This document shows, piece by piece, positions 8,266 through 63,201 of a stretch of DNA of 64,000 nt. Both the position numbers and the translations under genes were made by a program. This DNA comes from an uncultured Thermodesulfobacteriota bacterium (lineage in GTDB: Bacteria; Desulfobacterota; B13-G15), in NCBI GenBank assembly GCA_964611295.1, contig CAZSWV010000003.1:6449-70448 (forward strand), read 5' to 3'. Numbering within the stretch: position 1 is the stretch's first letter; each line of letters starts with the position of its first letter. A model generated the notes under the pieces. That model saw nothing but the letters and a program-made list of their open reading frames with translations, was not told where the DNA came from and made no database searches.

Positions 8266-8279
8266 CGCCTTCCTCTCCC

Positions 8280-9717: not shown

Positions 9718-11520
9718 ATGGTGCGAGGTCGCAAAAAAATGCGAAAGTCCCCTTCAAGGGAGGCCTTGAGGAGACAGGGCTTAGGGTTCGAAAGGGAATG
9801 GCACGTAGATTGCTCCTTTTGGGCCAAAAGGCCAAGGAGGCGCAGGGTGGAGGTTCGCTTCAGGAAGGCGATAGGCCCGGAGGAGAAACCTGCCCTTGAA
9901 TTCCTAGGTCCTCCTTTTACCAGACCTATGCCTGGGGTGGAGATCTTGAAAAAGGGGCGTGTCTTCCTCGAAGGAGGAAGGCCTTTGGCTTGTGATCTCC
10001 TCTGGGAGAGGGACCTTACTGTTACCTTGAGGGATGGGGTCAGGCTTTACCTTGACGTTTTCCGTCCTTTAGAGGTCGATGGTCCTGTACCGGCCATCGT
10101 CTCCTGGAGTCCTTACGGCAAGGGTGTACCCCAACCTCCACCTCCCGGGGTTCCAACCGAATGGGTTTCAGGGCTTCAGAAGTTCGAAGGGCCAGACCCC
10201 GCCTATTGGTGTCAGCACGGTTATGCGGTCGTAAACGTGGACACCCGGGGTGCCTTCAATTCTGAAGGGGACATCCACTTCTGGGGGCCAATAGACGCCC
10301 AAGACGGTTACGAGGTCATAGAATGGGTGGCTTCTCAGCCTTGGTGTAACGGTAGGGTGGCACTGTCAGGGAACTCCTGGCTTGCCATAGCCCAGTGGTT
10401 CATAGCTGCCCAAGCTCCTCCCCACCTAGCTGCCATAGCACCTTGGGAAGGCCTAACAGACCTTTACAGGCATGACGTCCTCCGCGGCGGCATCCCCAAT
10501 ACGGGCTTCAACGAGCTCATCATCCGTTCCTTGAGGGGCCATAACTTGGTAGAAGACATCCCGGCCATGGTGGAACAATACCCGCTTTTCAACGAGTACT
10601 GGCATCAGAAGGCCGCCCCCCTTGAAAAGGTGAAGGTCCCAGCATATGTAGTGGCAAGTTGGACAAATGACCTCCATACGCTGGGGACCTTGGAGGGCTT
10701 CAGGCGCATAGCTTCAGAGCACAAATGGCTTAGGGTCCACAATACGCATGAGTGGCACGATTACTACCACCCTGAAAACGTGGAAGACCTTCGGAGGTTC
10801 TTCGACTTCTTCTTGAAAGGGGTAAAAAACGGATGGGAGGAAACGCCAAAAGTGAGGCTCTCAATCCTTGACCCTGGGGGGGTAGACCGTACCGGCGTCG
10901 AGGAGAGCTCCTGGCCTGTGAGAGCAGACCGTGAAAGGTTTTACCTTGACGCGGGGACAAAGGGCCTTTCAAGGCGTTTACCCCCTTCAGAGGCCTTTTT
11001 GGAATACAAGGCGGACGACGGCCAAGGGAAGGCCGTTTTCGAGATGGCCTTCGAGGAAGACGTAGAGGTAATAGGTTACATAGAACTATGCCTTTACGTG
11101 GAGTCAAAAGGGGCTGACGACATGGATTTGTTTGTGCTGCTTGAAAAGTGCGATGCCCAAGGCAATCCCCTTAGGCATAAGGCTGGCATCTTCCCTTACT
11201 TTGGCCCCCATGGGAGGTTGAGGGTATCACATAGGGAACTGGAAGAGGGCCCTTCAGTTGAGGGACTGCCGGTTCACGCCCATAGGCGAGAACTCCCGCT
11301 AAAGGAAGGCGAGATCGTCTCATGTAGGATACCCCTCTGGCCCACAGGCATGAAGTGGCGAAAAGGTGAGAGGCTCCGGTTGACTATCTGCGGTTACAAC
11401 CCCGTCCCCTTCCACTTGCCCAACGTCCCGGGGCCTAAGCTGAGAAACAAGGGGATACACAGGGTTCACACAGGGGGCAAGTTCCCTTCCCACCTTTACT
11501 TGCCCCTTAGGAGGATTTGA
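9718..11520 (+). CDS. CocE/NonD family hydrolase (X-Pro dipeptidyl-peptidase S15-type alpha/beta hydrolase)
   Basis: LTVTLRDGVRLYLDVFRP...GPVPAIVSWSPYGK and GYAVVNVDTRG are hallmarks of CocE/NonD. The first ~70 codons (MVRGRKKMRKSPSRE...) look non-coding, so the true start is probably ATG 9928 (MPGVEIL...). Confidence 0.7.
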   Translation: MVRGRKKMRKSPSREALRRQGLGFEREWHVDCSFWAKRPRRRRVEVRFRKAIGPEEKPALEFLGPPFTRPMPGVEILKKGRVFLEGGRPLACDLLWERDLTVTLRDGVRLYLDVFRPLEVDGPVPAIVSWSPYGKGVPQPPPPGVPTEWVSGLQKFEGPDPAYWCQHGYAVVNVDTRGAFNSEGDIHFWGPIDAQDGYEVIEWVASQPWCNGRVALSGNSWLAIAQWFIAAQAPPHLAAIAPWEGLTDLYRHDVLRGGIPNTGFNELIIRSLRGHNLVEDIPAMVEQYPLFNEYWHQKAAPLEKVKVPAYVVASWTNDLHTLGTLEGFRRIASEHKWLRVHNTHEWHDYYHPENVEDLRRFFDFFLKGVKNGWEETPKVRLSILDPGGVDRTGVEESSWPVRADRERFYLDAGTKGLSRRLPPSEAFLEYKADDGQGKAVFEMAFEEDVEVIGYIELCLYVESKGADDMDLFVLLEKCDAQGNPLRHKAGIFPYFGPHGRLRVSHRELEEGPSVEGLPVHAHRRELPLKEGEIVSCRIPLWPTGMKWRKGERLRLTICGYNPVPFHLPNVPGPKLRNKGIHRVHTGGKFPSHLYLPLRRI

Positions 11521-11541
11521 AAAAAGAAAAGGAGGTGTAAG

Positions 11542-12582
11542 ATGAAGAGGTTTTTGGCGATTTTGTTTTCCATGTCCTTAACCTGGTTGGCCTTCCCCAT
11601 CAAGGGGGTTATGGCCCTGGAGAAGAAAGGGGAGGTCATCGAGCTTGTCTTCAGCAGTTCGAACCCGCCTGTTGCCCCCATTGTGCAATCTGCCCTTCAC
11701 TGGTTTGAGGTAGTCAAGAAAGAGACCAAGGGTAAGGTCCAATTCAAGGTCGTCACAGGTGGTGCACTGCTTACAGAACAAGAGGTCTTCAGGGGGATAC
11801 AAAGTGGGGTGGCAGACATAGCCACTTACATAGTGGACGAGCGCGATGGCTTTGTCCTCAATAGCGTTATAACCCTTCCCTTCTTGAAGTGGCCTTCGAG
11901 GGAAAAGGCCAATGAGATCTACGAGACGCTGATCCAAAGGATCCCAGAGGTAAAGGCCGAATGGAGGGGGGTGTTGCCCTTTGCCCTCTCCATGATGCCA
12001 CCAAACCATATCCATATGAGGAAAAAACAGGTAAGGACCCCCGCGGACCTCAAGGGGCAAAAGATCGCTGTGACCGGTAAATATGCCTCCCTCCTTAAGG
12101 CCTTAGGGGCAATCCCGGTGGAGGTCCCCATTCAGGATTGGTATTACGCCCTTGAGCGGGGGGTTGTGGACGGTTGCCTCAACCATTTTGCGGTCCTCAA
12201 GGTTTTCCAGCTCCTTGACCTGGTGAACACGCACACCCTCTTCGGTCCCGGCGGAGTGAACATGGGGGCCTTGGGGATAATCATGAACGAAAAGGCCTGG
12301 GAAAGCCTCCCCAAGGACGTACAAGAGGTCTTCGTGCAGACCCAAAGGGAATACACTCGTAAGCTTTACGAGATAGAGGAAACCCAATACCTCCAGGCTG
12401 CCATAGAGCACTGCAAGACACGTGGGCACACTTTCGTTGAGCTTTCGCCTGCTGAGATCACCGCATGGCAGAAGCTGGTGCAGAAGCCCATCGTCGAACA
12501 ATGGATAAAGGACTGTGAGAAAAAGGGGCTGCCTGGCAAGAAGGTCTACGAGGAAATGATCCGTATGATAGAAGGCAAGTAA
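11542..12582 (+). CDS. TRAP transporter solute-binding protein (DctP family), orphan (no adjacent DctQM)
   Basis: 346 aa with signal peptide and a DctP-type fold pattern. RBS AAAAGGAGGTG precedes the ATG. Confidence 0.65.
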   Translation: MKRFLAILFSMSLTWLAFPIKGVMALEKKGEVIELVFSSSNPPVAPIVQSALHWFEVVKKETKGKVQFKVVTGGALLTEQEVFRGIQSGVADIATYIVDERDGFVLNSVITLPFLKWPSREKANEIYETLIQRIPEVKAEWRGVLPFALSMMPPNHIHMRKKQVRTPADLKGQKIAVTGKYASLLKALGAIPVEVPIQDWYYALERGVVDGCLNHFAVLKVFQLLDLVNTHTLFGPGGVNMGALGIIMNEKAWESLPKDVQEVFVQTQREYTRKLYEIEETQYLQAAIEHCKTRGHTFVELSPAEITAWQKLVQKPIVEQWIKDCEKKGLPGKKVYEEMIRMIEGK

Positions 12583-12604
12583 AACCTCACGGAGGAGGTC
12601 ATAG

Positions 12605-13513
12605 ATGGACAGGATCATAGGCCTTTCCTGCGGAAGGATCGGTGGGAACTGTGAGATCCTTCTAAAAGAGGCCCTCATGGGGGCAGAGGAACTCGGAGTG
12701 AAAGGAGAAATCATAAGGGCCATGGAGCTTAGGGTTAAACCATGTAAGGGGTGCGAGACATGCACCCTCCTTATGGCCCAGGGGAAGGAACCCAAGTGTG
12801 CCATAACCGATGATGATGTGCCCTGGATTCTAGAAAAGGTACTTATGACAGATGCGGCCTTTATCTTGGCGGTCCCCGTCTACCACCTTCGGGCCAATGG
12901 TTACTTCGAGTGCATCCACGAAAGGATGTTGCCCTTTGTCTTCGGGCATCCTGAGATATTGGAAAAGAGGAAAGTAGCAGGTCTAATAGCTGTAGGAGGT
13001 GGAGAGCCAGAATGGACACCTCTTGGGGTGACTTCTGCCAACATCTTCATACAGCACTGTTGGAAACTGGTAGACCAAATGCAGGTGAACTTCTGCGGCC
13101 GTCCTGGGTCAGTGCTCTTGCACCCCCATTACCTCGAAAGGGCAAGGGAGCTCGGAAGGAACGTGGCCAGGGCAATGAGGCTTCCCATAGAGGAGGTAAA
13201 GTACATGGGGGAGGAAACTGAAGTCTCATGCCCTGTCTGCCACGGAAACGTCTTCAAGGTCCCTAGTGCGCATCCGGAGATATTCTGTCCCATATGTTGG
13301 ACAAGGGGGCAAGTCTCCTTGGAGGAGGGTAAGCTCTCGGTCCACTGGGATGAGGAAACCGTACAAAACCCGCGGTTTTCCCCTAAGGGGGTAGCGACGC
13401 ACGTCGAACTGATAAAGGACTTACAAAGACAGTATTACAGCAACCTTGAAAGGGTCAAAGCGGAAAAGGCCAAGTACGAAACCTGGGGCAAAGTCCTAAA
13501 ACCGGAGGCTTGA
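12605..13513 (+). CDS. iron-sulfur flavoprotein (Isf)-like NADPH-dependent FMN reductase-fold protein with C-terminal zinc-ribbon/rubredoxin-like Cys pairs
   Basis: Flavodoxin-like fold. Compact Isf-type motif CKGCETC...C near the N-terminus; C-terminal CPVCHG...CPICW. Confidence 0.55.
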   Translation: MDRIIGLSCGRIGGNCEILLKEALMGAEELGVKGEIIRAMELRVKPCKGCETCTLLMAQGKEPKCAITDDDVPWILEKVLMTDAAFILAVPVYHLRANGYFECIHERMLPFVFGHPEILEKRKVAGLIAVGGGEPEWTPLGVTSANIFIQHCWKLVDQMQVNFCGRPGSVLLHPHYLERARELGRNVARAMRLPIEEVKYMGEETEVSCPVCHGNVFKVPSAHPEIFCPICWTRGQVSLEEGKLSVHWDEETVQNPRFSPKGVATHVELIKDLQRQYYSNLERVKAEKAKYETWGKVLKPEA

Positions 13514-15573
13514 GTTTGGAGGACTTGGTAAGGGTTACCGTAGACGACCAGGTCTTTGAGGTACCGAGGGGCAGCTTGCTCATAGAGGTGGCCCTCCAGA
13601 ACGGTATTTACATCCCCCACCTCTGTCACCATCCTGACCTACCGCCCCTTGGGGAATGCGGCCTTTGTCTAATCGAAGTACAAGGCCTGGACAAGCCCGT
13701 GGAGGCCTGTACCTTTGAGGTGCAAGAAGAGGTCAACGTGAAAACCGATTCCCCGCTCTTAAGGGAGTTGCGACGGGAAAACCTGAAGAAGATTTTGCGA
13801 GGGCATCCGCCGGACTGTACTTCTTGTCCCAAGTACATGAGGTGCGAACTTCAGTCGTTAAAACAGTACTTGGGGGTTGGGGATCTTCCCATGGAGGGCG
13901 TCAAAGCCCTTCCTTTGGATGAAACCAACCCCCTCTTTGTCCTCGATCCCTCTAGGTGTGTCCTTTGCAAAAGGTGTATACGGGCCTGTAAGGACCTAAG
14001 GGGAATAGGGATCCTAGAGGTTAAGGAAAAGGACGGCTGGTCTTTTGTCGGGACACGTTCAGGTAAGCCCCTAGGGGAAGAAGGGTGTATGTTTTGCGGC
14101 AGCTGCGTTGAAGTCTGCCCTACAGGTGCCTTTAGGGACAAAGAAGGTTTGTTGAAGGGGAAGGGCAAAAGGGCAGCCCTTTTGCCCTGTGCCACGACCT
14201 GTCCTTTGGAAATAGACATACCCTCTTTTCTCAGGGCCGTAAAAAAGGGCGAAGGCCTCCTGGCTCGTTCCCTCTTGGAAAGGCGAACTCCCATGCCTTT
14301 GACCTTGACTTACGTATGCCAAGCGCCATGCGAGGAAGTATGCCGAAGGGGCCTTGTGAACGCCCCTATGGCTATAAGGGAACTTAAGAGGTTTGTGTTG
14401 GAGGAATTATCCCCTTTTGGTCTCAGAAGGGGTAAGCCTACTTCTGAAGGGACGGGGAAAATAGCCGTAATAGGATCAGGACCCGCAGGTCTGGTAGCAG
14501 CCTATTATTTGAGGCAAATGGGCCATCAGGTGACAGTCTTTGAAGCCATGCCCGAACCTGGGGGGATGTTGAGGTATGGGATACCTAGGTACAGGCTCCC
14601 TGAAGAGGTCCTACAGAAGGAACTACAGGAGCTTTTGGCCTGTGGAGTGGTGCTCAAGACCTCAAGCCCCATTGAGGACCTCGATCCCCTCCTTGGGGAG
14701 TACAATGCGGTAATAGTGGCCATTGGGGCCCAAAAAGGGGTCTCTCCCTTCCAAGACATGGGAAGCCGTTCCGGGATTTACACAGGTGTTGACTTTATGA
14801 AGATGGTCAACCAGGGCCTTGTCCCTGAGATCGGAAAAAGGGTCGCTGTCATAGGGGGAGGTGCGGTTGCCCTGGATTGCGCCAGAAGCGCCATAAGGCT
14901 TGGGGCCTCTGAGGTCTGGGTGATATGTCTCGAACGGAAAGACCAGATGCCAGCTGGCAGGAGGGAAATCGAGGAAGCCGAGGGCGAAGGGGTAAGGTTT
15001 ATCGACTCTGCCCATGTGACGGAACTAAAGGAAGGACCAAGGGGTAAAAGCCTCCGCTATGGAAGGGTCAAAGCCTTTGAGTTGGACCGAAAAGGCGGGC
15101 TGAATGTGGAACTTGAAGAGGGGGTCTTTGGAGAACTTTCTTTAGACACGGTGATATATGCAGTGGGGCAGAGGCCTTCTGTCCCTGAAGGGTTTGGATT
15201 AAAGCTGACCAGAGACGCTACCCTCTGGGTCGACCCTTTCACCTTGATGACCTCGCGCAGAGGGGTCTTTGCCGCAGGGGACGTCCTAACTGGTACCAGG
15301 ACGGTAGCCGAGGCCATGGCCTCCGGAAGAAGGGCAGCAGACGCAGTGGATAGGTTCCTAGGTGGGCAAGGCTTAGAAGATGAGCCCCCAAGGGAGGTAG
15401 AAGTCCGCATTGAGCCCCTGGCCGGTTTCTATAAGCTCGAGCGCTTGAAGGGGAAGGCCCGTTCTGCAAAAGAGGCCGCCTGCGAAGCCATGAGGTGCTT
15501 ACAGTGCGATCTGCGTCTCCGCATAAGGCCACCAAGGTTTTGGGCCGATTTCGCCCAAGGAGGACTCAAATGA
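13510..15573 (+). CDS. multi-cluster Fe-S protein: NuoG/HndD-like N-terminus (2Fe-2S, His-ligated 4Fe-4S, 2x4Fe-4S) fused to a GltD-like FAD/NAD(P)H oxidoreductase domain
   Basis: CHHPDLPPLGECGLC (2Fe-2S); HPPDCTSCPKYMRC; CVLCKRCIRAC and CMFCGSCVEVCP; then the GltD/NfnB-like pair KIAVIGSGPAGL and VAVIGGGAVALD. Confidence 0.75.
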   Translation: MSLEDLVRVTVDDQVFEVPRGSLLIEVALQNGIYIPHLCHHPDLPPLGECGLCLIEVQGLDKPVEACTFEVQEEVNVKTDSPLLRELRRENLKKILRGHPPDCTSCPKYMRCELQSLKQYLGVGDLPMEGVKALPLDETNPLFVLDPSRCVLCKRCIRACKDLRGIGILEVKEKDGWSFVGTRSGKPLGEEGCMFCGSCVEVCPTGAFRDKEGLLKGKGKRAALLPCATTCPLEIDIPSFLRAVKKGEGLLARSLLERRTPMPLTLTYVCQAPCEEVCRRGLVNAPMAIRELKRFVLEELSPFGLRRGKPTSEGTGKIAVIGSGPAGLVAAYYLRQMGHQVTVFEAMPEPGGMLRYGIPRYRLPEEVLQKELQELLACGVVLKTSSPIEDLDPLLGEYNAVIVAIGAQKGVSPFQDMGSRSGIYTGVDFMKMVNQGLVPEIGKRVAVIGGGAVALDCARSAIRLGASEVWVICLERKDQMPAGRREIEEAEGEGVRFIDSAHVTELKEGPRGKSLRYGRVKAFELDRKGGLNVELEEGVFGELSLDTVIYAVGQRPSVPEGFGLKLTRDATLWVDPFTLMTSRRGVFAAGDVLTGTRTVAEAMASGRRAADAVDRFLGGQGLEDEPPREVEVRIEPLAGFYKLERLKGKARSAKEAACEAMRCLQCDLRLRIRPPRFWADFAQGGLK

Positions 15574-16526
15574 AGGTCTGTGTCATATATTTCTCCCAAA
15601 CGGGGAACACCAAGAAGATAGCAGAATCCATAGTGGAAGGCATAAGGGATACAGGGGCCGAATGTGACCTCTTATCCATAAAGGAGGCTTCTGGAACCTC
15701 CCTTGATGGGTACCAATTGGTTGGGATTGGGAGCCCGGTTTGGTGTGGAGCAGAGCCCCCAAACGTAAGGGAGTTCATCCTGAGACTTCCAGGGCAAAGG
15801 GGACGACACGCCTTTTGTTTTTGCACCCACGGGGTCATGCCCGAGCATTACTTCCCCGTGGTCACAAGGAGGCTAAAGGGCAAGGGCTTTACGGTAATAG
15901 GCTTCAAGGGATGGTTCGGCAGCGTCCATTTCCAAATAGCGCCTTCGCCGTATTATACAGAAGGGCACCCAGACGAATTGGACCTAAGGGAAGCGCGGGA
16001 GTTCGGAAGGGAAATGGTCTACAAAAGCCGAAGGATAGCCAATGGCCATTCCGATTTAATACCACCCTTGCCCCCTTACCTATACACACCGCAACTTTGG
16101 GTATTAGCCGAGTTTTACAGGTATGGCCATAACCCCCATGGGCGTATAAGTTATGATCCAGAGAAGTGTAGGTATCCCCAGTGCAGGCTGTGCATGGAGA
16201 ACTGCCCCATGGGTTATATTGACTTCTCTCAACAACCACGGAGGTTTGGCTCAAAGGGTACCGAATGCGATATGTGGCTTGGTTGCACCTTCTGCGAGAT
16301 GATATGTCCAACGGGGGCCATTTACTGTGACTGGGAGGCCTTTCTTGAAGAGAGCAAGGAACTGCTTTCCGTCTTTGACTTCAATCCTCTCGAAGAGGCA
16401 GCAAGAAAGCTGGTCGAGGAAGGCCGTTTAAGGCTTTTGGTGAAATGGGAGGATGTAAGGTGGGATAGGCTTTATTTTATGGTCCACGACAAAAGGCCAC
16501 GGTTCAAAATAGGAGGGACGAGATGA
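15570..16526 (+). CDS. flavodoxin domain fused to a 2x[4Fe-4S] ferredoxin domain
   Basis: Start chosen at ATG 15570 (GGAGGACTCAAATGA, overlapping the upstream stop) rather than the ORF-track 15495. MKVCVIYFSQTGNTKK flavodoxin signature; C-terminal CRLCMENCP and CTFCEMICP. Confidence 0.65.
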   Translation: MKVCVIYFSQTGNTKKIAESIVEGIRDTGAECDLLSIKEASGTSLDGYQLVGIGSPVWCGAEPPNVREFILRLPGQRGRHAFCFCTHGVMPEHYFPVVTRRLKGKGFTVIGFKGWFGSVHFQIAPSPYYTEGHPDELDLREAREFGREMVYKSRRIANGHSDLIPPLPPYLYTPQLWVLAEFYRYGHNPHGRISYDPEKCRYPQCRLCMENCPMGYIDFSQQPRRFGSKGTECDMWLGCTFCEMICPTGAIYCDWEAFLEESKELLSVFDFNPLEEAARKLVEEGRLRLLVKWEDVRWDRLYFMVHDKRPRFKIGGTR

Positions 16527-17974
16527 GACACCTTGAGACAGAGATCGCAGTTATAGGGGCAGGACCTGCGGGTCTGGCAGCAGCCATATCGGCTGCTGAG
16601 CGAGGCAGCCAAGTAGTGGTACTTGAAAAAGGGGCCACTACAGGCGGAACGGCAAACATGGGAATGGGCCTTTTCGCTGTAGAAAGTAGGATACAAAAGG
16701 AAAAGCAGATAGCCTTGACTAAGGAAGAAGCCTTTCGGCTTTTCATGGATTACACCCATTGGCGAACCGATGCGAAGCTCGTGAAGTCTTATATCGACAA
16801 GTCCCCTGAGACCATATCCTGGCTTGAGGCAATGGGGGTGGAGTTTTACGATGTAGCGGCCTATTTCCCTGGGGCCCACTTCACTTGGCACATAGTGAAG
16901 CCTGAAGGCGGAGGGAGACCCGGCCCCGGTTGTGCTGCCACCATGACTAAGCTCATGACCAAACGGGCACAAGCCTTGGGGGTCACGTTCTTCTTGCAGT
17001 GCCCAGCTAAAAAGCTCTTAGGATCTGAAGAGGGGATAGAGGGGGTCCTTGCTGAAGATAGGGCTGGCGAGGAACTTTATGTCAAAGCGAAAGCCGTAGT
17101 CATCGCCACAGGAGGATTCGGCGACAACCCCGAATGGATAAAGCGCTTCACCGGTTTCCAGTGGGGGGTCGACCTCTTCTCCTTTAGGATACCAGGGCTT
17201 AACGGAGATGGGATAAGGATGGCATGGGATGTTGGCGCCGCGCGTTCGGAAATGAACTTGGAGCTGATATACGGCACTCCTGGGCTAGATGAGTTCCCTA
17301 CCCTAAGAGAGGTCTTCCGCCAACCCTTTGTCCTCATGCTGAACCTTCTCGGGGAACGTTTCATAAACGAGGAGATACTCCCCAACACCACCTTTACAGG
17401 CAATGCCGTAGCAAGGCAAAAGGAACGCTGTGCCTTCGCCGTACTGGATGACCACATATTGGAACGTTTGAAGAAAGGCCTTGAGGTCTTTTCCATGGTC
17501 TTTCCCGTGAAAGATGCCGCCTCTTTTGAGGATGAGTTTAAATCCGCCGTATCCAAGGGCGTAAAAGACCTCTTCATGGCCAATAACCTCCAGGAACTAG
17601 CAAGCCTCACCGGAATGGATGTAAAAGGGCTCCTTAGGACCTTTGAGGCTTACAATGCCTTTTGCGAGAGGGGAGTGGACAAAGAGCTTGGTAAAAGCCC
17701 TAAATACCTCTTCCCCCTTAAGGGACCGAGGTTCTTTGCAGCGAAGGTCTATCCGAGTGCATACGGCACATTAGGGGGGATAAAGATCAACCACCGGTGT
17801 GAGGTCCTCAACGAACAGTGGGGATCCATCCCTGGGCTTTACGCTGCTGGCACCGATGCCTGTTCCATCTATGGGGATAGCTACATGTTCTTATTGCCCG
17901 GCAACACCATGGGCTTTGCCGTCAACAGCGGACGAATTGCTGGCGAAAATGCCTCTTTTTACGTAAAGGGTTAA
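16523..17974 (+). CDS. FAD-dependent oxidoreductase, fumarate reductase/succinate dehydrogenase flavoprotein-like (FAD_binding_2)
   Basis: AVIGAGPAGLAAAISAAERGSQVVVLEKG...GGT N-terminal FAD fold and VIATGGFG motif. A soluble flavocytochrome-less fumarate-reductase / 3-ketosteroid-dehydrogenase-like architecture. Confidence 0.7.
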   Translation: MRHLETEIAVIGAGPAGLAAAISAAERGSQVVVLEKGATTGGTANMGMGLFAVESRIQKEKQIALTKEEAFRLFMDYTHWRTDAKLVKSYIDKSPETISWLEAMGVEFYDVAAYFPGAHFTWHIVKPEGGGRPGPGCAATMTKLMTKRAQALGVTFFLQCPAKKLLGSEEGIEGVLAEDRAGEELYVKAKAVVIATGGFGDNPEWIKRFTGFQWGVDLFSFRIPGLNGDGIRMAWDVGAARSEMNLELIYGTPGLDEFPTLREVFRQPFVLMLNLLGERFINEEILPNTTFTGNAVARQKERCAFAVLDDHILERLKKGLEVFSMVFPVKDAASFEDEFKSAVSKGVKDLFMANNLQELASLTGMDVKGLLRTFEAYNAFCERGVDKELGKSPKYLFPLKGPRFFAAKVYPSAYGTLGGIKINHRCEVLNEQWGSIPGLYAAGTDACSIYGDSYMFLLPGNTMGFAVNSGRIAGENASFYVKG

Positions 17975-17980
17975 GGCCCT

Positions 17981-18469
17981 CTATCCTACCCAGGGGATCT
18001 CCAAGACTTGAAGGCACCGGGAAGGGCAGACTGCAACGCATATGGGCTCTTTCCCATCGCGGACCCTATGGAGGCATAGGTCACACATGGCCACTGTCCC
18101 GTCTGGCAAGAACTCGGGGGCCCCTATGGGACAAGCCTCTTTACATAGACCGCACCCTGTACAGATATCCCTGTCCACTTCAAGGACGCCTTCTTGGGTT
18201 TGGAATATGGCCCCAAGCGGACATGCCTCCTTACAAAGAGGGTGCGTACATTGCCTACACACCACAACTCTAAAGGACTGCCCCACCTTTCCATCTACAA
18301 TAAAGGGGCCTCCTTCAAATACCCTTATGAAGGACGGTCCCTTGGGTTCGGCCTGGGGAGGGGAAGTGGGATAAGGGGGGAATTGGTGTTCCATCTTGCA
18401 GGCAACTGTACACGCGCGACATCCTATACATTTCCTTGGATCTACCTGGAGCTTAAGCCTCATCCTCAA
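17981..18469 (-). CDS. 4x[4Fe-4S] ferredoxin-type electron-transfer subunit of a molybdopterin oxidoreductase (DmsB/PsrB/BthL-like)
   Basis: Four Cys clusters: CIGCRACTVAC, CRQCTHPLCKEACP, CTGCGLCKEACP, CDLCLHR...CVAVCP. Overlaps and follows the Mo-subunit gene. Confidence 0.75.
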   Translation of the reverse strand: MRMRLKLQVDPRKCIGCRACTVACKMEHQFPPYPTSPPQAEPKGPSFIRVFEGGPFIVDGKVGQSFRVVVCRQCTHPLCKEACPLGAIFQTQEGVLEVDRDICTGCGLCKEACPIGAPEFLPDGTVAMCDLCLHRVRDGKEPICVAVCPSRCLQVLEIPWVG

Positions 18470-20579
18470 CCTCTGCCTTGGAGATGCGACATAACAAAGC
18501 CCTGAAGGTAGTAGACCCTATACATGGGTCATAAGGGGGGTCATTGCTAGTAAGTACATTGGCGTTGCTTATGAAAAGGCTCTGGACAGATGGGTCCTCT
18601 GGATAGTACCAGGAACTCTGAACCACAACGATCCTCGGATCCATTCCTGAGAAGAGCTTGGCCTTTTGCTTTATCCTACCCCTTGGGGTCTCAATCCACA
18701 CCCAATCGCCCTCTTTTATGCCGTACTTGGAAGCTGTTTCGGGGTGGATCTGAACGACGGGATAAGGTTGGAGCTCCCTAAGCCATGGGTTTTCCCTGTA
18801 CTGCGAATGGAAGTAATACGGGACACGCCCACCTGTAGTTAAGATCAAGGGGTAGACTCCGCTCAGGGAGCCATCAAGGGGGCTTTCGTTGGGTTCCTTA
18901 TAATGGGGCAATGGATCATAGCCTAACTTTTCCAAAGTCGTAGAATAAAGCTCCACCTTCCCTGTTGGCGTGGGGAATCCTCCTCCTTTGCGCCAATATC
19001 CCCTTTCGTGCTTGTTGTAATGTACCTCCCCTGTTGTGGCCAATACGCCTACTTCTTTGAACTCCTCCCATCTGATTCCGGCTTTCCTCAGTTGGTAATC
19101 AAGCATTTCCTCTACGTCCTCAAAGGGCCAATAGATGGGGGCAAGCCGCTTACCCAATTCGAGGAATATCCTGTTGTCTGGCCAGGCCTCACCCGGAGGT
19201 TCTACAGCCTTGACTATTGCTGAAACGAAGAACCTAGGATGCATGTCGTATATGTCGTCGGTCTCAAGCCAGTGGGCAGCCGGTAAGACCAAGTCTGCAA
19301 AACGCGCCGAAGGCCCCATGTAAAGGTCCACAACCGAGATGAACTCCACCTCTGAAAGGGCCTGGAATACCTCCTTGGCGTTTGCGTAAGCCAGTACTGG
19401 ATTGGTCCCCACAAGGTGCATCACTTTTACCTTCTTTTCGCCATAGAGGAGGTCTTTACAGACTGAGTCCCAATGACACATGGCAAAGGGGGGCATCGCC
19501 AGGAGTTTATGTTCGTTGGCCCCTATGGGCAGCTCCTCCGGCGCAGGCACCTCCAGGGCGAAGTCTTCCATAGGACCTGCCGGTGAAGGCACCCACTGGA
19601 CCATACTGCCGGGCCTCTCGATGTTGCCCGTTATGGCCAAGATGCAAATTATGGCCCTTAGGGTCTGGATGGAATTATTGCTCGCCTCAAGGGCTTGACC
19701 TATTTGGATGCAGGCGGGACCCTCACATGCTATAGCCCTCGCCATGGCCTTGATCTTCTCTTCCGGCACCCAGGTGATGTGGCTGACCCACTTTAGGTCA
19801 TATTGCCTGACCCTTTCCGCCAAGGCCTCAAAACCATAAGTCCATTTTTCCACAAACTCCCTGTCGTAGAGCTTTTCTTCTATTATGACCCTCAGGACCC
19901 CCAGGGCCAAGGCTGCATCTGTACCTGGCCTTATGGGGACCCAAAGGGTCGCTCTATGAGCCAAAGCAGTAGCCCTTGGGTCGACAAGGATGAAGTTTTG
20001 GGCCTTCTCCAAGGCCCTCAGGAACCAAACGCCCATTTCGCCATCGGCATTGCTGTATTCTAGTTGTTTTCCCCAATGGACGATGGTCTTTGGATGAACC
20101 CCACCCCATCCATGGTAGTCACAGAAAAGCCTCCCTCCCACTGTTAGGCCAAAGGCGGCCATCCTCGGTGCAAAACAGAAATGGGCAGGGAAAAGTACAT
20201 TGGGCGTACCGATGGACCGGGCAAAACGTAAGGTATAACGGTTATACCCCCTGCCTGTACCCTGGCCCACAAGGACAGAACTGGGACCGTAACGCCTTTG
20301 AGCTTCCCTTATCTTGTCCGCAATAAGGTCAAGGGCTTCTTGCCAAGGGATTTCAACCCACTTGCCACTTCCCCTTTCACCGACCCTTTTTAAGGGTTTG
20401 GTCAACCTATTGGGGTTTACGGTCTCAAGGATGCTAGCGATGCCTTTGGGACACATGGTCCCAAAGGTTAGAGAGTCCTTCTCCCCCTCTATATGAGAGG
20501 CCTTCCCGTTTACCACGGTCACAAGGACCCTACACCCTCCGTGACAGCCTTTACACGTGGTCCTGACCTTCTTGACCAT
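18453..20579 (-). CDS. cytoplasmic molybdopterin (Mo/W-bis-PGD) oxidoreductase catalytic subunit, acetylene-hydratase / transhydroxylase-like clade; no Tat signal
   Basis: 708 aa. N-terminal CKGCHGGC...C FS0 motif directly after Met, with no RRxFLK leader. The protein recalls acetylene-hydratase-type DMSOR-family members. Confidence 0.75.
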   Translation of the reverse strand: MVKKVRTTCKGCHGGCRVLVTVVNGKASHIEGEKDSLTFGTMCPKGIASILETVNPNRLTKPLKRVGERGSGKWVEIPWQEALDLIADKIREAQRRYGPSSVLVGQGTGRGYNRYTLRFARSIGTPNVLFPAHFCFAPRMAAFGLTVGGRLFCDYHGWGGVHPKTIVHWGKQLEYSNADGEMGVWFLRALEKAQNFILVDPRATALAHRATLWVPIRPGTDAALALGVLRVIIEEKLYDREFVEKWTYGFEALAERVRQYDLKWVSHITWVPEEKIKAMARAIACEGPACIQIGQALEASNNSIQTLRAIICILAITGNIERPGSMVQWVPSPAGPMEDFALEVPAPEELPIGANEHKLLAMPPFAMCHWDSVCKDLLYGEKKVKVMHLVGTNPVLAYANAKEVFQALSEVEFISVVDLYMGPSARFADLVLPAAHWLETDDIYDMHPRFFVSAIVKAVEPPGEAWPDNRIFLELGKRLAPIYWPFEDVEEMLDYQLRKAGIRWEEFKEVGVLATTGEVHYNKHERGYWRKGGGFPTPTGKVELYSTTLEKLGYDPLPHYKEPNESPLDGSLSGVYPLILTTGGRVPYYFHSQYRENPWLRELQPYPVVQIHPETASKYGIKEGDWVWIETPRGRIKQKAKLFSGMDPRIVVVQSSWYYPEDPSVQSLFISNANVLTSNDPPYDPCIGSTTFRALLCRISKAEVEDEA

Positions 20580-20776
20580 TTCCCCTTTAACGGAAAAGTT
20601 AACAACCTTTATGCCATTGATACTATGAAAAGGCCACCTTGGAAAGGACCTTTCACAGTTCGTAGCATTTTGCGAAAGGGGCTTGGAAATTTACGAGAAC
20701 TCTGAAGGACCTTAAAGGCCCTAGGTCATCCTCCCGATGCCGAATTAAAGGCATAGCGCTTGCTAAGGGAAATCCC

Positions 20777-21745
20777 GTGGTGGATCCCTCAAAGCTGAAA
20801 ATAGGGGTTGTAGGGGCTGGGCAGATGGGCCATGGGATAGCACAGGTCTTTGCCTGTGCTGGCTCAGGGGTGGTGATGGTGGACGTGGACATGGAGAGGT
20901 TGAAGAAGGCCCTTCGGCTTATAGAGGAAAACCTCGCCTTTTTGGCCGAAAAAGGGCTCTTCAGGGGAAGGCGCGAAGAGGTCCTCAGGAGGATTGAACC
21001 CTCCACGGCCCTTGATCCCCTGAAGGAGGCTGACTTAGTGGTTGAATCCGTCTATGAGGACCTCAAGTTAAAACAGGATCTCTTCTTCGAACTTGACCGT
21101 TTGTGTAGGCCTCAGACCGCCTTGGCCTCCAACACTTCGGTCATTAGCATCACTGAGATAGCTCAAAGGTGCCGAAGGAAGGAGAGGGTCCTTGGGACCC
21201 ACTTTTGGAATCCTCCCTTCCTTGTACCCCTTGTGGAGGTTGTAAAGACAGAGCACACTTCGGAGGAGGTCTTCGACTTCGCTTACGAGGTGCTTTTGGC
21301 CGTAGGCAAAAGGCCCATAAAGTGCTTAAGGGATGTACCTGGATTCATAGCCAATAGGCTCCAGCATGCCCTTTGGCGCGAGGCAGTCTCTTTGGTGGAA
21401 AAGGGTATAGCCGATCCCGAGACGGTGGACGAGGCCATAAAGTTGAGCTTTGGCTTGAGGCTCCCCGTCCTGGGTCCTTTGGAGAACGCTGATATGGTTG
21501 GGCTGGACCTGGTATTGTCCATACACGATTACATCTTCAAGTATCTCGATGCTTCAAAGGAAGCCTCACCCCTTTTAAGGGAGAAGGTGGAAAAAGGCGA
21601 GCTAGGCTTTAAGTCCCAGAAGGGCTTCTACACATGGACCGAGCAAAAGGCAAAGCAGAAGAGGGAAGAACTCTTAGAACACTTGGTGAGATGGCATCTT
21701 TCGCAAAAAGGCCAAGGAGGTGAAGATGGAAAAGCTCATAATTAG
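20777..21745 (+). CDS. hbd: 3-hydroxyacyl-CoA dehydrogenase (3-hydroxybutyryl-CoA dehydrogenase-like)
   Basis: KIGVVGAGQMGHGIAQVFA NAD fold. NTS motif (ASNTSVISITEIA) and HFWNPP region typical of the 3HCDH family. Confidence 0.8.
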   Translation: MVDPSKLKIGVVGAGQMGHGIAQVFACAGSGVVMVDVDMERLKKALRLIEENLAFLAEKGLFRGRREEVLRRIEPSTALDPLKEADLVVESVYEDLKLKQDLFFELDRLCRPQTALASNTSVISITEIAQRCRRKERVLGTHFWNPPFLVPLVEVVKTEHTSEEVFDFAYEVLLAVGKRPIKCLRDVPGFIANRLQHALWREAVSLVEKGIADPETVDEAIKLSFGLRLPVLGPLENADMVGLDLVLSIHDYIFKYLDASKEASPLLREKVEKGELGFKSQKGFYTWTEQKAKQKREELLEHLVRWHLSQKGQGGEDGKAHN

Positions 21746-22661
21746 CGCCGCTTTAACAGGGAACATCACCCTACCGACTCAGACCCCTTATTTACCAATA
21801 ACCCCAGAAGAGATAGCCGAAGAAGCCAGAAGAGCGGCAGAGGCAGGGGCGGCCATAGTCCACATACATGCACGGGATCCCAAAACGGGAAGGCCTACTA
21901 CAGACCCTGAAGTCTACAGGGAAATTGCGGTAAAGATCAAGGAAAGGACCGACGCCATAATATGCATAACCACTGGTGGTACCATGTACATGACCCCGGA
22001 GGAGAGGTTAAGGGTTGTCCCACTCCTGAAGCCTGAGCTCGCTACCTTTAACATGGGTTCCATCAACTTCTCCATCCATCCCATAGCCGATAGGTTCAAA
22101 GACGAGGAATGGAAGTACCCCTGGGAGAAGGAGTTTGCCGAAAGTACAAAGGACTTCATCTTCAGGAACACCTTCGGCGACATGGAAAAGTACTGTAAGA
22201 CCATGTACGAAAACGGCACTGTACCTGAGTGTGAGGTCTACGATGTAGGACACCTCTACAACATGAACTTCCTAATAAGGAAGGGGTTGTTGAGGAAACC
22301 CATATGGATGCAGTTCGTGACTGGCGTCCTGGGGGGTATAGGTGCTGATCCTGAAAACGTCATCTTTTTAAAACAAAGGGCTGACAAGCTCATCGGCCCT
22401 GATAACTATCGCTGGTCTGTCATAGGGGTTGGGTACCCTGCAGAATTCCACCTCGCTGCCCTTGCTATAGTGATGGGGGGACATGTGAGGGTAGGTTTTG
22501 AGGACAACATCTACATAAGCAGCGGGGTACTGGCTAAGAGCAACGCCGAATTGGTGGAGAAGGTGGTAAGGCTTGCAAGGGAGTTGGGTAGGGATATCGC
22601 CTCGCCTGAGGAAGTGCGTAAGACCTTGGGCTTGAAAGGTAAGGACAAGGTGAACTTTTAG
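21720..22661 (+). CDS. BKACE family enzyme (3-keto-5-aminohexanoate cleavage enzyme-like, DUF849)
   Basis: 313 aa TIM-barrel. IISAALTGN, IVHIHARD and ICITTGG match beta-keto acid cleavage enzymes. Confidence 0.75.
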   Translation: MKMEKLIISAALTGNITLPTQTPYLPITPEEIAEEARRAAEAGAAIVHIHARDPKTGRPTTDPEVYREIAVKIKERTDAIICITTGGTMYMTPEERLRVVPLLKPELATFNMGSINFSIHPIADRFKDEEWKYPWEKEFAESTKDFIFRNTFGDMEKYCKTMYENGTVPECEVYDVGHLYNMNFLIRKGLLRKPIWMQFVTGVLGGIGADPENVIFLKQRADKLIGPDNYRWSVIGVGYPAEFHLAALAIVMGGHVRVGFEDNIYISSGVLAKSNAELVEKVVRLARELGRDIASPEEVRKTLGLKGKDKVNF

Positions 22662-22679
22662 CCAAGAGGAGGTAAGAGG

Positions 22680-23444
22680 ATGGGCGGGCTTTTTGACTTG
22701 ACAGGGGAAGTGGCCATAGTGGTCGGAGGTTCTGGTGGCCTCGGGCAGGCTCAAGCGCTAGGACTTGCGGAAGCCGGGGCCCATGTGGTGGTAGCCGCTC
22801 GAAGGATGGAAAAACTCGAACCCGTAGTCGAGCAGATCAAGGCCATGGGCCGTAAGGGATTGGCCGTGAGCGTAGACGTGGTGGACGAAAGGTCTGTAGA
22901 GGCCATGGTGGAAAAGGTCCTTAAGGAATTCGGGAAAATCGACATCTTGGTGAATTCCCACGGGATTGCCATACGTAAACCTGCGGAGTCTTTCCCTATC
23001 GATGAATGGCGTCAGGTCATAGAGGTAAACGTAGTGGGGCTTTTCATATGTTGCCAAAAGGTGGGGCGTGTCATGATAGACCAGAGGAAGGGAAAGATAA
23101 TCAATATGTCCTCGGTAAGGGGGAGGTACGGGCTTCCTGCCAACTATACCGCTTATTGTGCAAGTAAGGGAGCAGTGGACACCCTGACAAGGACCCTGGC
23201 TTGCGAGTGGGCAAAGTACAACGTCCTTGTCAACGCCATAGCGCCCACCATCGTGGAAACAGAGCTGACACGCCCTGCACTTTCGGATCCAAACTTCGCC
23301 CAAACTATGAAGGCGCGCATACCCCTTGGAAGATGGGCTATGCCGGATGACATAGTCGGCCTGACGGTCTTTTTGGCCTCAAGGGCCTCGGATTTCATCA
23401 CCGGACAGGTCATCTATGTAGACGGTGGGGTCACTACCTGGTGA
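22680..23444 (+). CDS. SDR family oxidoreductase
   Basis: VVGGSGGLGQA, NSHG (NNAG-like) and YCASKGAV (YxxxK). Confidence 0.8.
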   Translation: MGGLFDLTGEVAIVVGGSGGLGQAQALGLAEAGAHVVVAARRMEKLEPVVEQIKAMGRKGLAVSVDVVDERSVEAMVEKVLKEFGKIDILVNSHGIAIRKPAESFPIDEWRQVIEVNVVGLFICCQKVGRVMIDQRKGKIINMSSVRGRYGLPANYTAYCASKGAVDTLTRTLACEWAKYNVLVNAIAPTIVETELTRPALSDPNFAQTMKARIPLGRWAMPDDIVGLTVFLASRASDFITGQVIYVDGGVTTW

Positions 23445-23466
23445 AAAAAACTTAGGAGGTGAGCAG

Positions 23467-32442: not shown

Positions 32443-32903
32443 CCTTTAACCTCCTTCTTCATGAGTTCAATGGCTAGCCTTACCGCCTTCTTTATCCGCG
32501 GATAGGTCCCACACCTACAAATCACGTCATCGAGTTGCCGTATGACCTCTTCATGGTTTGGCAAAGGCCTCTTGGACAAAAGGTATGCCACCTGCATGAT
32601 TATCCCCGGCTGACAATACCCACATTGGGGAACTTGCTCTATCAACCAAGCCCTTTTTACAGGATGGTCCGCAGGAAGCCCTTCTATCGTCACCACTTCC
32701 TTACCTTCAACTTCCCCCACAGGAAGCACACAAGACCTCTGCGCCGCCCCGTCCACGTGAACCGTACAAGCACCACATTCCCCTACCCCACATGCATACT
32801 TGGTACCCGTAAGTTTCAAATGATCCCTTAAAACCCACAAAAGGGGCGTATCAGGAGAAACATCCACTTTATATACCTTACCGTTCACCTTTAACCTCAA
32901 CAT
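32439..32903 (-). CDS. (2Fe-2S)-binding small subunit of the Mo hydroxylase (IorA-like)
   Basis: 154 aa with CGVGECGAC (plant-type 2Fe-2S) and CGYC...C (second 2Fe-2S). Translationally coupled to the large subunit. Confidence 0.8.
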   Translation of the reverse strand: MLRLKVNGKVYKVDVSPDTPLLWVLRDHLKLTGTKYACGVGECGACTVHVDGAAQRSCVLPVGEVEGKEVVTIEGLPADHPVKRAWLIEQVPQCGYCQPGIIMQVAYLLSKRPLPNHEEVIRQLDDVICRCGTYPRIKKAVRLAIELMKKEVKG

Positions 32904-61871: not shown

Positions 61872-61874
61872 CGT

Positions 61875-63182: not shown

Positions 63183-63201
63183 AATACCCCTAATCCTTTG
63201 T

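Follow-up and report, generated by a model that had tools for sequence, protein, structure and literature searches.

Six clustered redox genes of an uncultured Thermodesulfobacteriota bacterium fall into two separable modules next to candidate phloroglucinol pathway genes

Does a compact run of six cofactor-rich redox genes encode one enzyme system or several? The question is raised by an 8-kb stretch (positions 12605-20579) of a contig from an uncultured Thermodesulfobacteriota bacterium, analysed here within a 64-kb piece of DNA that we refer to as the window. A sequence-only reading of this DNA had described four overlapping genes for flavin and iron-sulfur (FeS) proteins that run head-on into a molybdenum or tungsten (Mo/W) enzyme with its FeS subunit, and had proposed a single NAD(P)H/ferredoxin-coupled system around the Mo/W centre. 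Open reading frame (ORF) analysis and Pfam and NCBIfam searches confirmed the six ORFs at 12605-20579 and their domains, three 4-nt start/stop overlaps (13510/13513, 15570/15573 and 16523/16526) and a gap of exactly 6 nt (17975-17980) between the convergent stops of the fourth flavoprotein gene and the FeS gene. The Mo and FeS genes also overlap each other (18453-20579 and 17981-18469). The comparisons described below show that the six genes are two separable modules and not one enzyme complex around the Mo centre. We consider it probable that the stretch forms the central part of a catabolic island of ~16.5 kb (~9.8-26.1 kb), under sigma-54 control, for flavonoid- or hydroxybenzene-type plant polyphenols, degraded via phloroglucinol, whose three modules occur separately elsewhere. 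The decisive context, which the sequence-only reading overlooked, is four downstream phloroglucinol genes with which the Mo and FeS genes travel. The genes of the island are as follows.

9847-11520, plus strand (ORF listed from 9718): cytoplasmic CocE/NonD-family alpha/beta hydrolase (Peptidase_S15 and PepX_C; TIGR00976, 228 bits; GNSWLA nucleophile motif)
11542-12582, plus strand: tripartite ATP-independent periplasmic (TRAP) solute-binding protein with signal peptide (DctP, 119.5 bits; hydrophobic N-terminus)
12605-13513, plus strand: FLR-like ene-reductase binding flavin mononucleotide (FMN) (FMN_red; Isf-type four-Cys motif; C-terminal CxxC...CxxC ribbon)
13510-15573, plus strand: NAD(P)H-oxidising FeS flavoprotein with a NuoG/HydA-type N-terminus and a GltD/NfnB-type flavin adenine dinucleotide (FAD) module, the GltD fusion (Fer2_4, NADH-G_4Fe-4S_3, Fer4_Nqo3, Fer4_20, Pyr_redox_2)
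15570-16526, plus strand: EFR1-like fusion of flavodoxin and 2x[4Fe-4S] ferredoxin, Fld-Fdx (Flavodoxin_5/3/1 and Fer4; NF038196, 73.4 bits against a cut-off of 75; two cluster motifs)
16523-17974, plus strand: stand-alone, VprA-like FAD_binding_2 reductase, the FAD enzyme (FAD_binding_2, 192.7 bits; Tyr-rich active site)
17981-18469, minus strand: electron-transfer subunit with four [4Fe-4S] clusters, 162 aa (Fer4_11; DmsB-like, 98 bits; 16 Cys in four cluster motifs)
18453-20579, minus strand: cytoplasmic catalytic subunit with Mo/W-bis(pyranopterin guanine dinucleotide) (bisPGD), 708 aa (Molybdop_Fe4S4, Molybdopterin and Molydop_binding)
20777-21745, plus strand: candidate (S)-3-hydroxy-5-oxohexanoate dehydrogenase (TfD) of the 3-hydroxyacyl-CoA-dehydrogenase family (3HCDH_N and 3HCDH; cluster position as in PMC10470551)
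21720-22661, plus strand: candidate triacetate acetoacetate-lyase (TAL), BKACE family (BKACE, 367 bits; NF053538 best)
22680-23444, plus strand: candidate phloroglucinol reductase (PGR), a short-chain dehydrogenase/reductase (SDR) (adh_short_C2, 219 bits; cluster position)
23467-24273, plus strand: candidate dihydrophloroglucinol cyclohydrolase (DPGC), cyclase family (PF04199)
24278-26131, minus strand: sigma-54 enhancer-binding activator with two PAS domains (Sigma54_activat, 239 bits; PAS; HTH_8)

The CocE/NonD hydrolase and the TRAP binding protein are thus present directly upstream of the six genes, as had been reported. A 14-gene order from the hydrolase to the sigma-54 activator is kept in three other contigs, L084, L087 and L158 (such labels denote comparison contigs or genomes), at protein identities of 42-91%, the extremes being the FeS subunit (42-47%) and the cyclase (90-91%). 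The flanks outside this block differ among the three contigs and the window. Because the same order recurs despite this divergence, we regard the arrangement as conserved and not coincidental. Conservation of the gene neighbourhood, which had been put forward as a check, therefore exists, but all six redox genes are syntenic in these three contigs only, all of the window's own lineage. We found no description of the gene set as such in the literature searched, in agreement with the earlier impression. Could the operons nonetheless be unrelated neighbours, with only the Mo, FeS and phloroglucinol genes linked and the flavoproteins serving another pathway? The modules are indeed separable in most genomes. 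Against this stand the order retained in three contigs with differing flanks while the FeS subunit and the GltD fusion diverged to 42-47% and 54-55% identity, and the independent linkage of FAD enzyme genes to phloroglucinol genes (L131), a Mo homologue (L159) and a transhydroxylase-like enzyme (L167). We consider this explanation highly improbable.

Rates of divergence within the block are uneven. The FeS subunit is 42-47% identical between the window and L084, L087 and L158, yet the Mo subunit is 76-78% identical, and the GltD fusion (54-55%) diverges much faster than its operon neighbours (64-78%). In L158 (11900-14011) the Mo gene is broken by frameshifts into four pieces in two reading frames while the contig is otherwise syntenic; the gene is a pseudogene unless the assembly is at fault.

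The anaerobic phloroglucinol pathway of Clostridium scatologenes comprises PGR, DPGC, TfD and TAL (Zhou et al. 2023, PMC10470551). At 20777-24273, directly downstream of and divergent from the Mo gene, genes of all four families (3HCDH, BKACE, SDR and cyclase) occur together, clustered as in C. scatologenes; the window cluster has no adjacent CoA-transferase or thiolase gene. The BKACE protein has as its best NCBIfam match the 3,5-dioxohexanoate model NF053538, at 413.4 bits and below the cut-off of 430. There is no PGR-specific model among the NCBIfam models, and the SDR was assigned from its position in the cluster. The cyclase belongs to a very tight sequence group, with 68% identity to a 266-aa protein of Rubrivivax gelatinosus and 61-63% to a 290-aa protein of Archaeoglobus fulgidus DSM 8774; a supplementary survey of DPGC has entries of these organisms and lengths (PMC10470551), matched by organism and length and not by accession. 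Searches of the PDB with the SDR and the cyclase returned generic relatives only. A role of the BKACE and 3HCDH proteins in carnitine metabolism or lysine fermentation was set aside, as the BKACE protein fits the 3,5-dioxohexanoate model best and the four genes together correspond to the phloroglucinol cluster. The published survey already includes Archaeoglobus and sulfate reducers (PMC10470551), and the parts of that work that were searched, in its text, the legend of its Fig. 8 and its supplements, make no mention of a Mo/W enzyme in phloroglucinol clusters.

Conservation around the Mo gene was examined in 80 loci, one genome per species, encoding relatives of the Mo subunit at 53-74% identity, which were searched with 14 window proteins. 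Most of these loci pair the Mo gene with a homologue of the FeS subunit gene, which lies 3' of it in the closest relatives. In A. fulgidus DSM 8774 the gene order is BKACE, SDR, HCDH, transporter, Mo, FeS, cyclase, CoA-transferase A/B and thiolase, and a proteobacterial metagenome-assembled genome (MAG) carries cyclase, cupin, BKACE, SDR, HCDH, Mo and FeS genes on one strand. Mo and FeS genes are also found with phloroglucinol genes in L004, L016 and L085 (an archaeal MAG). Linkage of the soluble Mo+FeS pair to the phloroglucinol pathway thus extends from Archaeoglobus and further archaeal MAGs to a proteobacterial MAG and the lineage of the window. Other close forms of the Mo gene (L005/L170, L008-L012 and L017) lie near genes for Fcr-like enzymes of the old yellow enzyme (OYE) type, SnoaL-like proteins, FLR-like proteins and phloretin/diacetylphloroglucinol-hydrolase-like proteins. 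Three of the four flavoprotein genes, by comparison, were missing: neither the Fld-Fdx fusion nor the FAD enzyme was encoded within 10 kb of the Mo homologue in any of the 80 genomes, and the GltD fusion was absent from this interval save for one weak 35% match in L078.

Two further features of these loci were recorded. A Cupin_2 protein of 111-143 aa recurs in phloroglucinol clusters (L004, L015/L169, L016, L018, L085, L086 and L131), mostly together with the Mo+FeS pair, and is absent from the window. In Dehalococcoidia (L023-L039 and similar loci) the Mo homologues, at 53-58% identity, lie in a conserved FeS-NrfD-Mo unit accompanied by a carboxylesterase, a URO-D protein, a thiamine pyrophosphate enzyme and a zinc alcohol dehydrogenase. 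Its make-up resembles that of a membrane-bound system that transforms polyphenols, possibly in respiration. Several tandem genes nearby, 38 ORFs over 15 loci in all, match PF01917, a domain of archaeal flagellins, which is odd in Chloroflexi.

What kind of enzyme is the Mo subunit? It begins MVKKVRTTCKGCHGGC, directly with its cluster motif and with no twin-arginine translocation (Tat) leader, so that the earlier description of a Tat-less, cytoplasmic protein stands. All three Pfam domains of the dimethyl sulfoxide reductase (Mo/W-bisPGD) superfamily score above their cut-offs. Its identity in BLAST comparisons was 33-35% with Cldh, Dodh and a third homologue of Gordonibacter (362-404 bits), 30-31% with acetylene hydratases (314-318 bits) and 22% with PGTL (82 bits), the pyrogallol transhydroxylase of Pelobacter acidigallici; the reference sequences come from the alignment that accompanies Maini Rekdal et al. 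2020. A phmmer search of the PDB returned acetylene hydratase (317 bits), PsrA (237 bits) and FdhF (221 bits). In a neighbour-joining tree, which is rough and carries no bootstrap values, the Mo subunit falls in its own tight clade of 53-78% identity. Within this family Cys135 is invariant in 14 members and aligns to the Cys of the MCIGN motif of acetylene hydratase and to LCTAPR of PsrA. The MCIGN Cys is taken here to be the W ligand, and Cys135 is, by alignment, the candidate Cys ligand to Mo/W. The residue after the second cluster Cys is His13, again invariant in all 14 aligned members, in place of the Asp13 of acetylene hydratase, the residue essential for acetylene hydration.

Four named classes were rejected for this subunit. 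Acetylene hydratase identity was discarded on the replacement of the key Asp by His13. The match to the Fdh-alpha model reached 291 bits against a cut-off of 666, which excludes formate dehydrogenase and bears out the earlier expectation that the protein lies outside well-characterised clades such as this one. Thiosulfate/polysulfide reductase was dismissed on a PhsA score of 307 bits against a cut-off of 694, and membership of the pyrogallol transhydroxylases on the 22% identity and 82 bits given above and the lack of a PF21423 hit.

The traits of soluble dehydroxylases are present in the window: no Tat leader, a partner gene for a 162-aa four-cluster protein and no adjacent NrfD-like gene. 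Gordonibacter Cldh and Dodh are likewise Tat-less, smaller bisPGD enzymes with a small 4Fe-4S partner and act on plant polyphenol metabolites (PMC7028382). They are the best-scoring characterised relatives, aligned at full length, and like the window protein carry Cys-His in the N-terminal motif, at a position occupied by Cys-Asp in acetylene hydratase. The window protein is only about one third identical to them and ~80-90 residues shorter, and has a complete four-Cys N-terminal cluster motif where Cldh and Dodh have only CH-x-GC. Its gene lies by the phloroglucinol pathway, and theirs by major facilitator superfamily transporters. Acetylene hydratase (Pelobacter acetylenicus, 2E7Z) is the best structural match (317 bits) and is also cytoplasmic, with an N-terminal [4Fe-4S] cluster and the aligned Cys, but has no FeS partner subunit, unlike the window enzyme. 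On this comparison of sequences we place the Mo+FeS pair in an uncharacterised clade of the catechol-dehydroxylase/acetylene-hydratase branch, nearest to the soluble Gordonibacter dehydroxylases and then to acetylene hydratase. PGTL, a cytoplasmic two-subunit Mo enzyme that supplies phloroglucinol to the same downstream pathway, is the likeliest functional analogue. It differs in belonging to the Ser-ligated branch (PMC10100899), was not among the PDB matches at E<=1e-10, and has relatives recognised by PF21423 (AhtL-like), which is unmatched in the window protein and was seen in a true transhydroxylase relative in L167. From its gene context we infer that the Mo+FeS pair removes or transfers a ring hydroxyl, letting polyhydroxybenzenes or catechol-type products enter the phloroglucinol route; it would then be a functional analogue of the Pelobacter transhydroxylase outside that enzyme's family. 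The reaction may be redox-neutral or reductive.

For the flavoprotein genes we compared 80 metagenomic loci encoding homologues of the FAD enzyme (51-69% identity), together with L167 and L168 (82 loci in all), after clustering their ORFs. The FAD enzyme gene neighbours GltD-like genes in 32 of the 82 loci, CocE-like hydrolase genes in 29, FLR-like genes in 26, NuoE/F-like fusions in 14, Fld-Fdx fusions in 9, Fcr-like OYE genes and phloretin-hydrolase-like genes in 8 each, URO-D-type methyltransferase genes in 7 and SnoaL-like genes in 5. The commonest cassette is the FAD-CocE pair, and the CocE-like hydrolase is a frequent, unexplained partner of the flavoprotein genes. An intact Mo gene accompanies the FAD enzyme in two loci only (L087 and L159), a third (L158) having the frameshifted copy. 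Individual loci repeat parts of the window's arrangement: in L131 a phloroglucinol cluster is followed directly by the FAD enzyme and Fld-Fdx; in L168 phloretin-hydrolase-like, FLR, SnoaL and FAD enzyme genes precede a CoA ligase; in L132 and L135 a complete TRAP transporter is followed by FLR-FAD-CocE; and in L167 (7233-18918) CocE-FLR-FAD precedes DUF1302, DUF1329 and a 987-aa AthL-type Mo enzyme with a 279-aa FeS subunit. The flavoprotein genes are therefore a separate recurring unit, found without Mo in dozens of loci, as the Mo+FeS pair is found, in 80 genomes, without GltD, Fld-Fdx and FAD genes, and the proposal of one system around the Mo centre does not hold. A separate flavoprotein unit was among the outcomes that the sequence-only reading had itself named as refuting its proposal.

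FLR, Fcr and Phy are established bacterial flavone-degradation enzymes whose genes are clustered in clostridia. Because the neighbours of the FAD enzyme include FLR, Fcr and phloretin-hydrolase types, the flavoprotein operon is most plausibly the counterpart, in environmental anaerobes, of a flavonoid-type ene-reductase system, supplied with electrons from NAD(P)H by proteins of its own. In two cases the company kept by these genes was of separate note. In L130 (174-9799) genes for the FAD enzyme and the Fcr-like OYE alternate twice (FAD, OYE, FAD, OYE). The FAD enzyme of some organisms may therefore have the OYE protein as its partner in place of a GltD protein. In L167 glycine-cleavage-T-like and URO-D genes flank the cassette, and a second, unrelated Mo clade occurs in the same company.

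Homology of the single proteins was then considered. The FLR-like protein had been described as an Isf-like FeS flavoprotein. It does carry an FMN domain and the Isf-like C-x2-C-x2-C-x11-C motif, but it is a full-length homologue of the flavone reductase FLR of Flavonifractor plautii (7D38), its sole PDB match, over residues 3-296 against 2-303 of that 302-aa protein. Both proteins have a flavodoxin-like FMN domain with an extended C-terminal domain, and the four-Cys and C-terminal Cys motifs are common to them. The match has E values of 8e-35 to 8e-30 and a coverage of ~97%, with an identity of 28% by BLAST or 31% over aligned columns; Yang et al. (PMC7862272) defined the family by identity >=30%, coverage >=80% and E <=1e-10. 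A candidate FLR of C. butyricum shares 70% identity with the characterised enzyme of C. ljungdahlii and yet only 28% with F. plautii FLR. FLR reduces the C2=C3 bond of flavones and flavonols and cannot use NAD(P)H, and its physiological donor was left open (PMC7862272). In the window the FLR-like gene overlaps a run of genes for an NAD(P)H-oxidising FeS flavoprotein and Fld-Fdx, an arrangement unreported for FLR in the literature examined.

The GltD fusion protein has 687 aa and 26 Cys, and its best PDB matches are 9bov (387 bits), 9n5u NfnA (347 bits) and 8oh5 (319 bits). It thus shares a GltD-like FAD/NADPH module with two clusters with NfnAB and with the Bfu-type transhydrogenases (StnABC/NfnABC; 8OH5, 9BOV, 9N5U), but the module is fused behind a NuoG/HydA-type cluster domain in 687 aa, against 963-1178 aa for Bfu-type chains. 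In L112 and L113 (between FLR and GltD) and in L017 (beside a NuoE/F-like gene) the NuoG-type domain is a separate protein of ~240 aa, and the window protein is therefore a gene fusion. The island encodes neither a NuoF-type subunit nor an NfnA partner; a NuoE/F-like gene lies beside the GltD-like gene in 14 related loci. The flavin-based bifurcating or confurcating complex that had been suggested finds no support in the window, where the lack of a NuoF-type subunit leaves a bifurcating architecture incomplete; bifurcation at the GltD-type FAD is conceivable. The Fld-Fdx fusion is the putative internal electron carrier.

These data bear most directly on a single, possibly bifurcating NAD(P)H/ferredoxin-coupled complex with the Mo/W site at its centre, made up of the Mo+FeS pair and all four flavoproteins. 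The two units are kept in tight juxtaposition in L084 and L087, and in the same order with a frameshifted Mo gene in L158; the GltD module most resembles Bfu-type bifurcating subunits, and the units are probably co-regulated. Such a complex is hard to reconcile with 80 genomes in which the 10 kb on either side of the Mo gene contain no GltD, Fld-Fdx or FAD gene (the weak match in L078 aside), with an intact Mo gene in only L087 and L159 among 82 FAD enzyme loci, with the convergent orientation of the two units, which are not one operon, and with the missing NuoF-type subunit. We regard it as very unlikely.

The FAD enzyme has been called fumarate-reductase-like. It is of the same FAD_binding_2 fold family, and its PDB matches are Fcc3 (151 bits) and UrdA (108 bits), but unlike the named FAD_binding_2 ene-reductases (VprA, Fcc3, UrdA) the window protein has no haem or FMN_bind domain. 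Its best NCBIfam match is the VprA model, over the full length at 324.8 bits and below the cut-off of 600, and it also matches the ChcC1/ChcC2 and KstD models. Alignment places Tyr250, Tyr414 and Tyr454 at Fcc3 H365, H504 and R545, and Pro/Asn at R402. The three Tyr are invariant or nearly so in 13 homologues. In Fcc3, H365, H504 and R545 bind the carboxylates of fumarate, and R402 is the proton donor. Since the binding His/Arg are replaced by Tyr and R402 is not conserved, the protein is not a fumarate or urocanate reductase; fumarate, urocanate and tricarballylate were rejected as substrates. The pocket, as judged from the alignment, suits a neutral or phenolic enone.

A different role for module 1 follows from the same family. 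The operon could encode a dearomatising reductase and a ring-cleaving hydrolase for resorcinol- or hydroxyhydroquinone-type benzenes, with reduction of the keto tautomer by the FAD enzyme and opening of the cyclohexanedione ring by the CocE-like protein. FAD_binding_2 relatives interconvert cyclohexanone, cyclohexenone and phenol, in line with the ChcC1/ChcC2 and KstD model matches, and the FAD enzyme has a Tyr-rich active site, like that of KstD. The frequency of the FAD-CocE cassette would also be accounted for, and a donor chain of low potential would suit a resorcinol reductase such as the ferredoxin-dependent one named in PMC10470551. The only paper found on this enzyme does no more than mention it, and no resorcinol reductase sequence was found for comparison, while the recurrent FLR-like, phloretin-hydrolase-like and Fcr-like partners point to flavonoids. 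We think the dearomatising role improbable and favour the flavonoid-type assignment.

A looser relation between modules 1 and 2 was also weighed, in which the enzymes are separate but the GltD and Fld-Fdx chain also feeds a reductive Mo/W dehydroxylase in this lineage, so that the neighbourhood reflects a shared electron supply. Catechol dehydroxylases are reductive, and their soluble forms come with a small FeS partner only. A Pyr_redox_2 flavoprotein gene lies directly 5' of the Mo gene in L008, L009 and L017, FLR-like genes lie within 10 kb of it in L008, L010 and L017, and the convergent arrangement is kept in the window's relatives. The earlier idea of an NAD(P)H flavoprotein feeding a soluble Mo+FeS enzyme thus has precedent in L008, L009 and L017, although the modules are separable elsewhere. 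In Archaeoglobus and the proteobacterial operon, however, no donor gene lies beside the Mo+FeS pair, which fits a redox-neutral transfer or a general ferredoxin equally well. A shared supply therefore seems possible but unlikely. More speculative is an extension of it, which we offer as a long shot: the GltD-type protein and Fld-Fdx would be the missing electron chain of FLR-type ene-reductases, and the GltD FAD would split the NAD(P)H electron pair, one path driving the exergonic C=C reductions by the FLR-like and FAD enzymes and the other giving low-potential power to Mo/W ring dehydroxylation. If true, the island would be an integrated, energy-coupled polyphenol-reducing system in strict anaerobes.

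Are the three modules controlled together? The following candidate sigma-54 sites were identified.

9799-9814, plus strand: sigma-54 (-24/-12) promoter TGGCACGTAGATTGCT, the only perfect TGGCAC-N5-TTGCW match in the window
20601-20616, minus strand: sigma-54-like candidate with 2 mismatches, 22 nt upstream of the Mo gene and weak on its own
20749-20764, plus strand: sigma-54-like candidate with 2 mismatches, 5' of the phloroglucinol operon, uncertain because the gap to GTG 20777 is too short for a normal leader

By a rough estimate ~0.06 perfect matches are expected by chance. The perfect site is followed by AAGGAGG and an in-frame GTG at 9847, and the CocE homologue of L084 is correspondingly shorter; the CocE gene most likely starts at GTG 9847 and not at 9718. 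The 197-nt divergent region contains both weaker sites, one facing the Mo gene and the other the phloroglucinol operon, and comparable sites exist in L084 and L158. The two sites are suggestive only, and take what weight they have from their intergenic positions. The PAS-PAS-sigma-54 activator gene adjoins the cyclase gene also in L084, L087 and L158, and its product is the presumed island regulator. The perfect promoter, the sites in the divergent region and the conserved position of the activator suggest that the modules are co-regulated as one regulon and move together. The overlaps between genes suggest translational coupling within the operon. A terminator scan of the convergent junction found none in the 6-nt gap and one weak hairpin, inside the FeS gene.

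Taken as a polyphenol island, the locus would work as follows. In module 1 (9847-17974, plus strand, one operon) the GltD/NfnB-like FAD site would oxidise NAD(P)H, and the electrons would pass through the NuoG-type cluster chain to the Fld-Fdx fusion. This would in turn reduce two reductases, the FLR-like FMN/FeS ene-reductase and the VprA-like FAD enzyme, both of which may hydrogenate the C=C bond of enone-type polyphenols (flavone to flavanone, and chalcone-type enones). The CocE-like hydrolase might then cut an ester or beta-diketone-type bond, freeing a phloroglucinol-type ring. In module 2 (17981-20579, minus strand) the soluble Mo/W-bisPGD enzyme with its four-cluster subunit would remove or relocate a hydroxyl of the ring, which would open the pathway to more highly hydroxylated rings such as pyrogallol, tetrahydroxybenzene and catechol-type products; module 1 may also feed module 2. 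Module 3 (20777-24273, plus strand) would use PGR, DPGC, TfD and TAL to yield acetoacetate and acetyl-CoA. We are most confident of the phloroglucinol pathway, of the association of the Mo+FeS pair with it and of the FLR homology, and least confident of the roles of the FAD enzyme and the CocE-like hydrolase.

Several observations weigh against the polyphenol island. The substrates of modules 1 and 2 are proposed from homology at 28-35% identity and from gene neighbourhood. Gly106, His271 and Ile275 are important for apigenin turnover by FLR (PMC7862272), and in our alignment they are replaced by Leu, Thr (with a His one position later) and Leu, respectively, whereas Trp149, also a pocket residue, and Gly146 are conserved; with three pocket residues changed, the substrate of the FLR-like protein may not be a flavone. 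The window has no gene of the phloretin-hydrolase family and none for a chalcone isomerase, which makes the role given to the CocE-like hydrolase a guess. Most genomes with a Mo homologue have no phloroglucinol genes within 10 kb, and the Dehalococcoidia homologues are of the membrane type (FeS-NrfD-Mo) with a different conserved context. Sigma-54-like sites with 2 mismatches occur over the window at chance density (23 found against 26.8 expected). Many of the metagenomic contigs are short, so that the co-occurrence counts are lower bounds, and they are phylogenetically non-independent.

The assignment matters in several settings. How flavonoids and tannins are broken down anaerobically matters for the carbon stored in peat and sediments (the 'enzyme latch' debate) and for the range of polyphenol metabolites that gut microbes produce. 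Soluble Mo/W enzymes of a widespread, uncharacterised clade are encoded within phloroglucinol clusters of organisms as different as Archaeoglobus and Proteobacteria and could be a second, independently evolved funnel of polyhydroxybenzenes into phloroglucinol, while the membrane-bound version in non-dehalogenating Dehalococcoidia hints at polyphenol respiration. The GltD protein and Fld-Fdx provide a concrete candidate donor chain for flavone reductase, a question left open by its discoverers. Metagenomes of sediment, soil and peat also encode a large family of FAD reductases with a Tyr-lined active site, whose genes recur beside those for flavonoid degradation.

Outside the island, two further features may belong to the same metabolism.

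1353-3431, plus strand: FeS flavoenzyme with OYE and Pyr_redox_2 domains, 692 aa, enoate-reductase/Fcr type (domain scan)
5041-9602, minus strand: Liv-type ABC transporter with binding protein, divergent from the hydrolase operon (domain scans)

The OYE/Fcr-type gene lies ~6 kb upstream of the island, and its homologue in L084 is a few genes away on the activator side. Fcr-like OYE homologues neighbour Mo or FAD genes in 16 loci, and the window's protein may be a flavanone-cleaving reductase and a further member of the pathway. Similar Liv-type transporters flank Mo and phloroglucinol genes in L169 and FLR and FAD genes in L168. The TRAP binding protein had been called an orphan, which is true locally. 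At 61875-63702, however, the window encodes DctM and a 166-aa ORF that is probably DctQ, and these may be its membrane partners; TRAP homologues are followed by DctQ and DctM beside FLR-FAD-CocE genes in L121, L132 and L135. Within 60564-63702 a URO-D-type protein is encoded beside DctM and the 166-aa ORF, and this family recurs near Mo and FAD genes elsewhere. Sigma-54, MutS and EF-G mark the source of the window as bacterial. A second molybdoenzyme, of the xanthine-dehydrogenase family, is encoded at 30259-32903 (minus strand) by a 727-aa MoCoBD subunit and a 154-aa 2Fe-2S subunit, with no FAD subunit seen adjoining. At 55496-59707 (plus strand) lies the gene for a 1403-aa protein with two BcrAD/BadFG ATPase stretches and DUF2229, of the type that activates radical dehydratases and reductases. 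The G+C content falls to 41-45% in the last 4 kb of the window.

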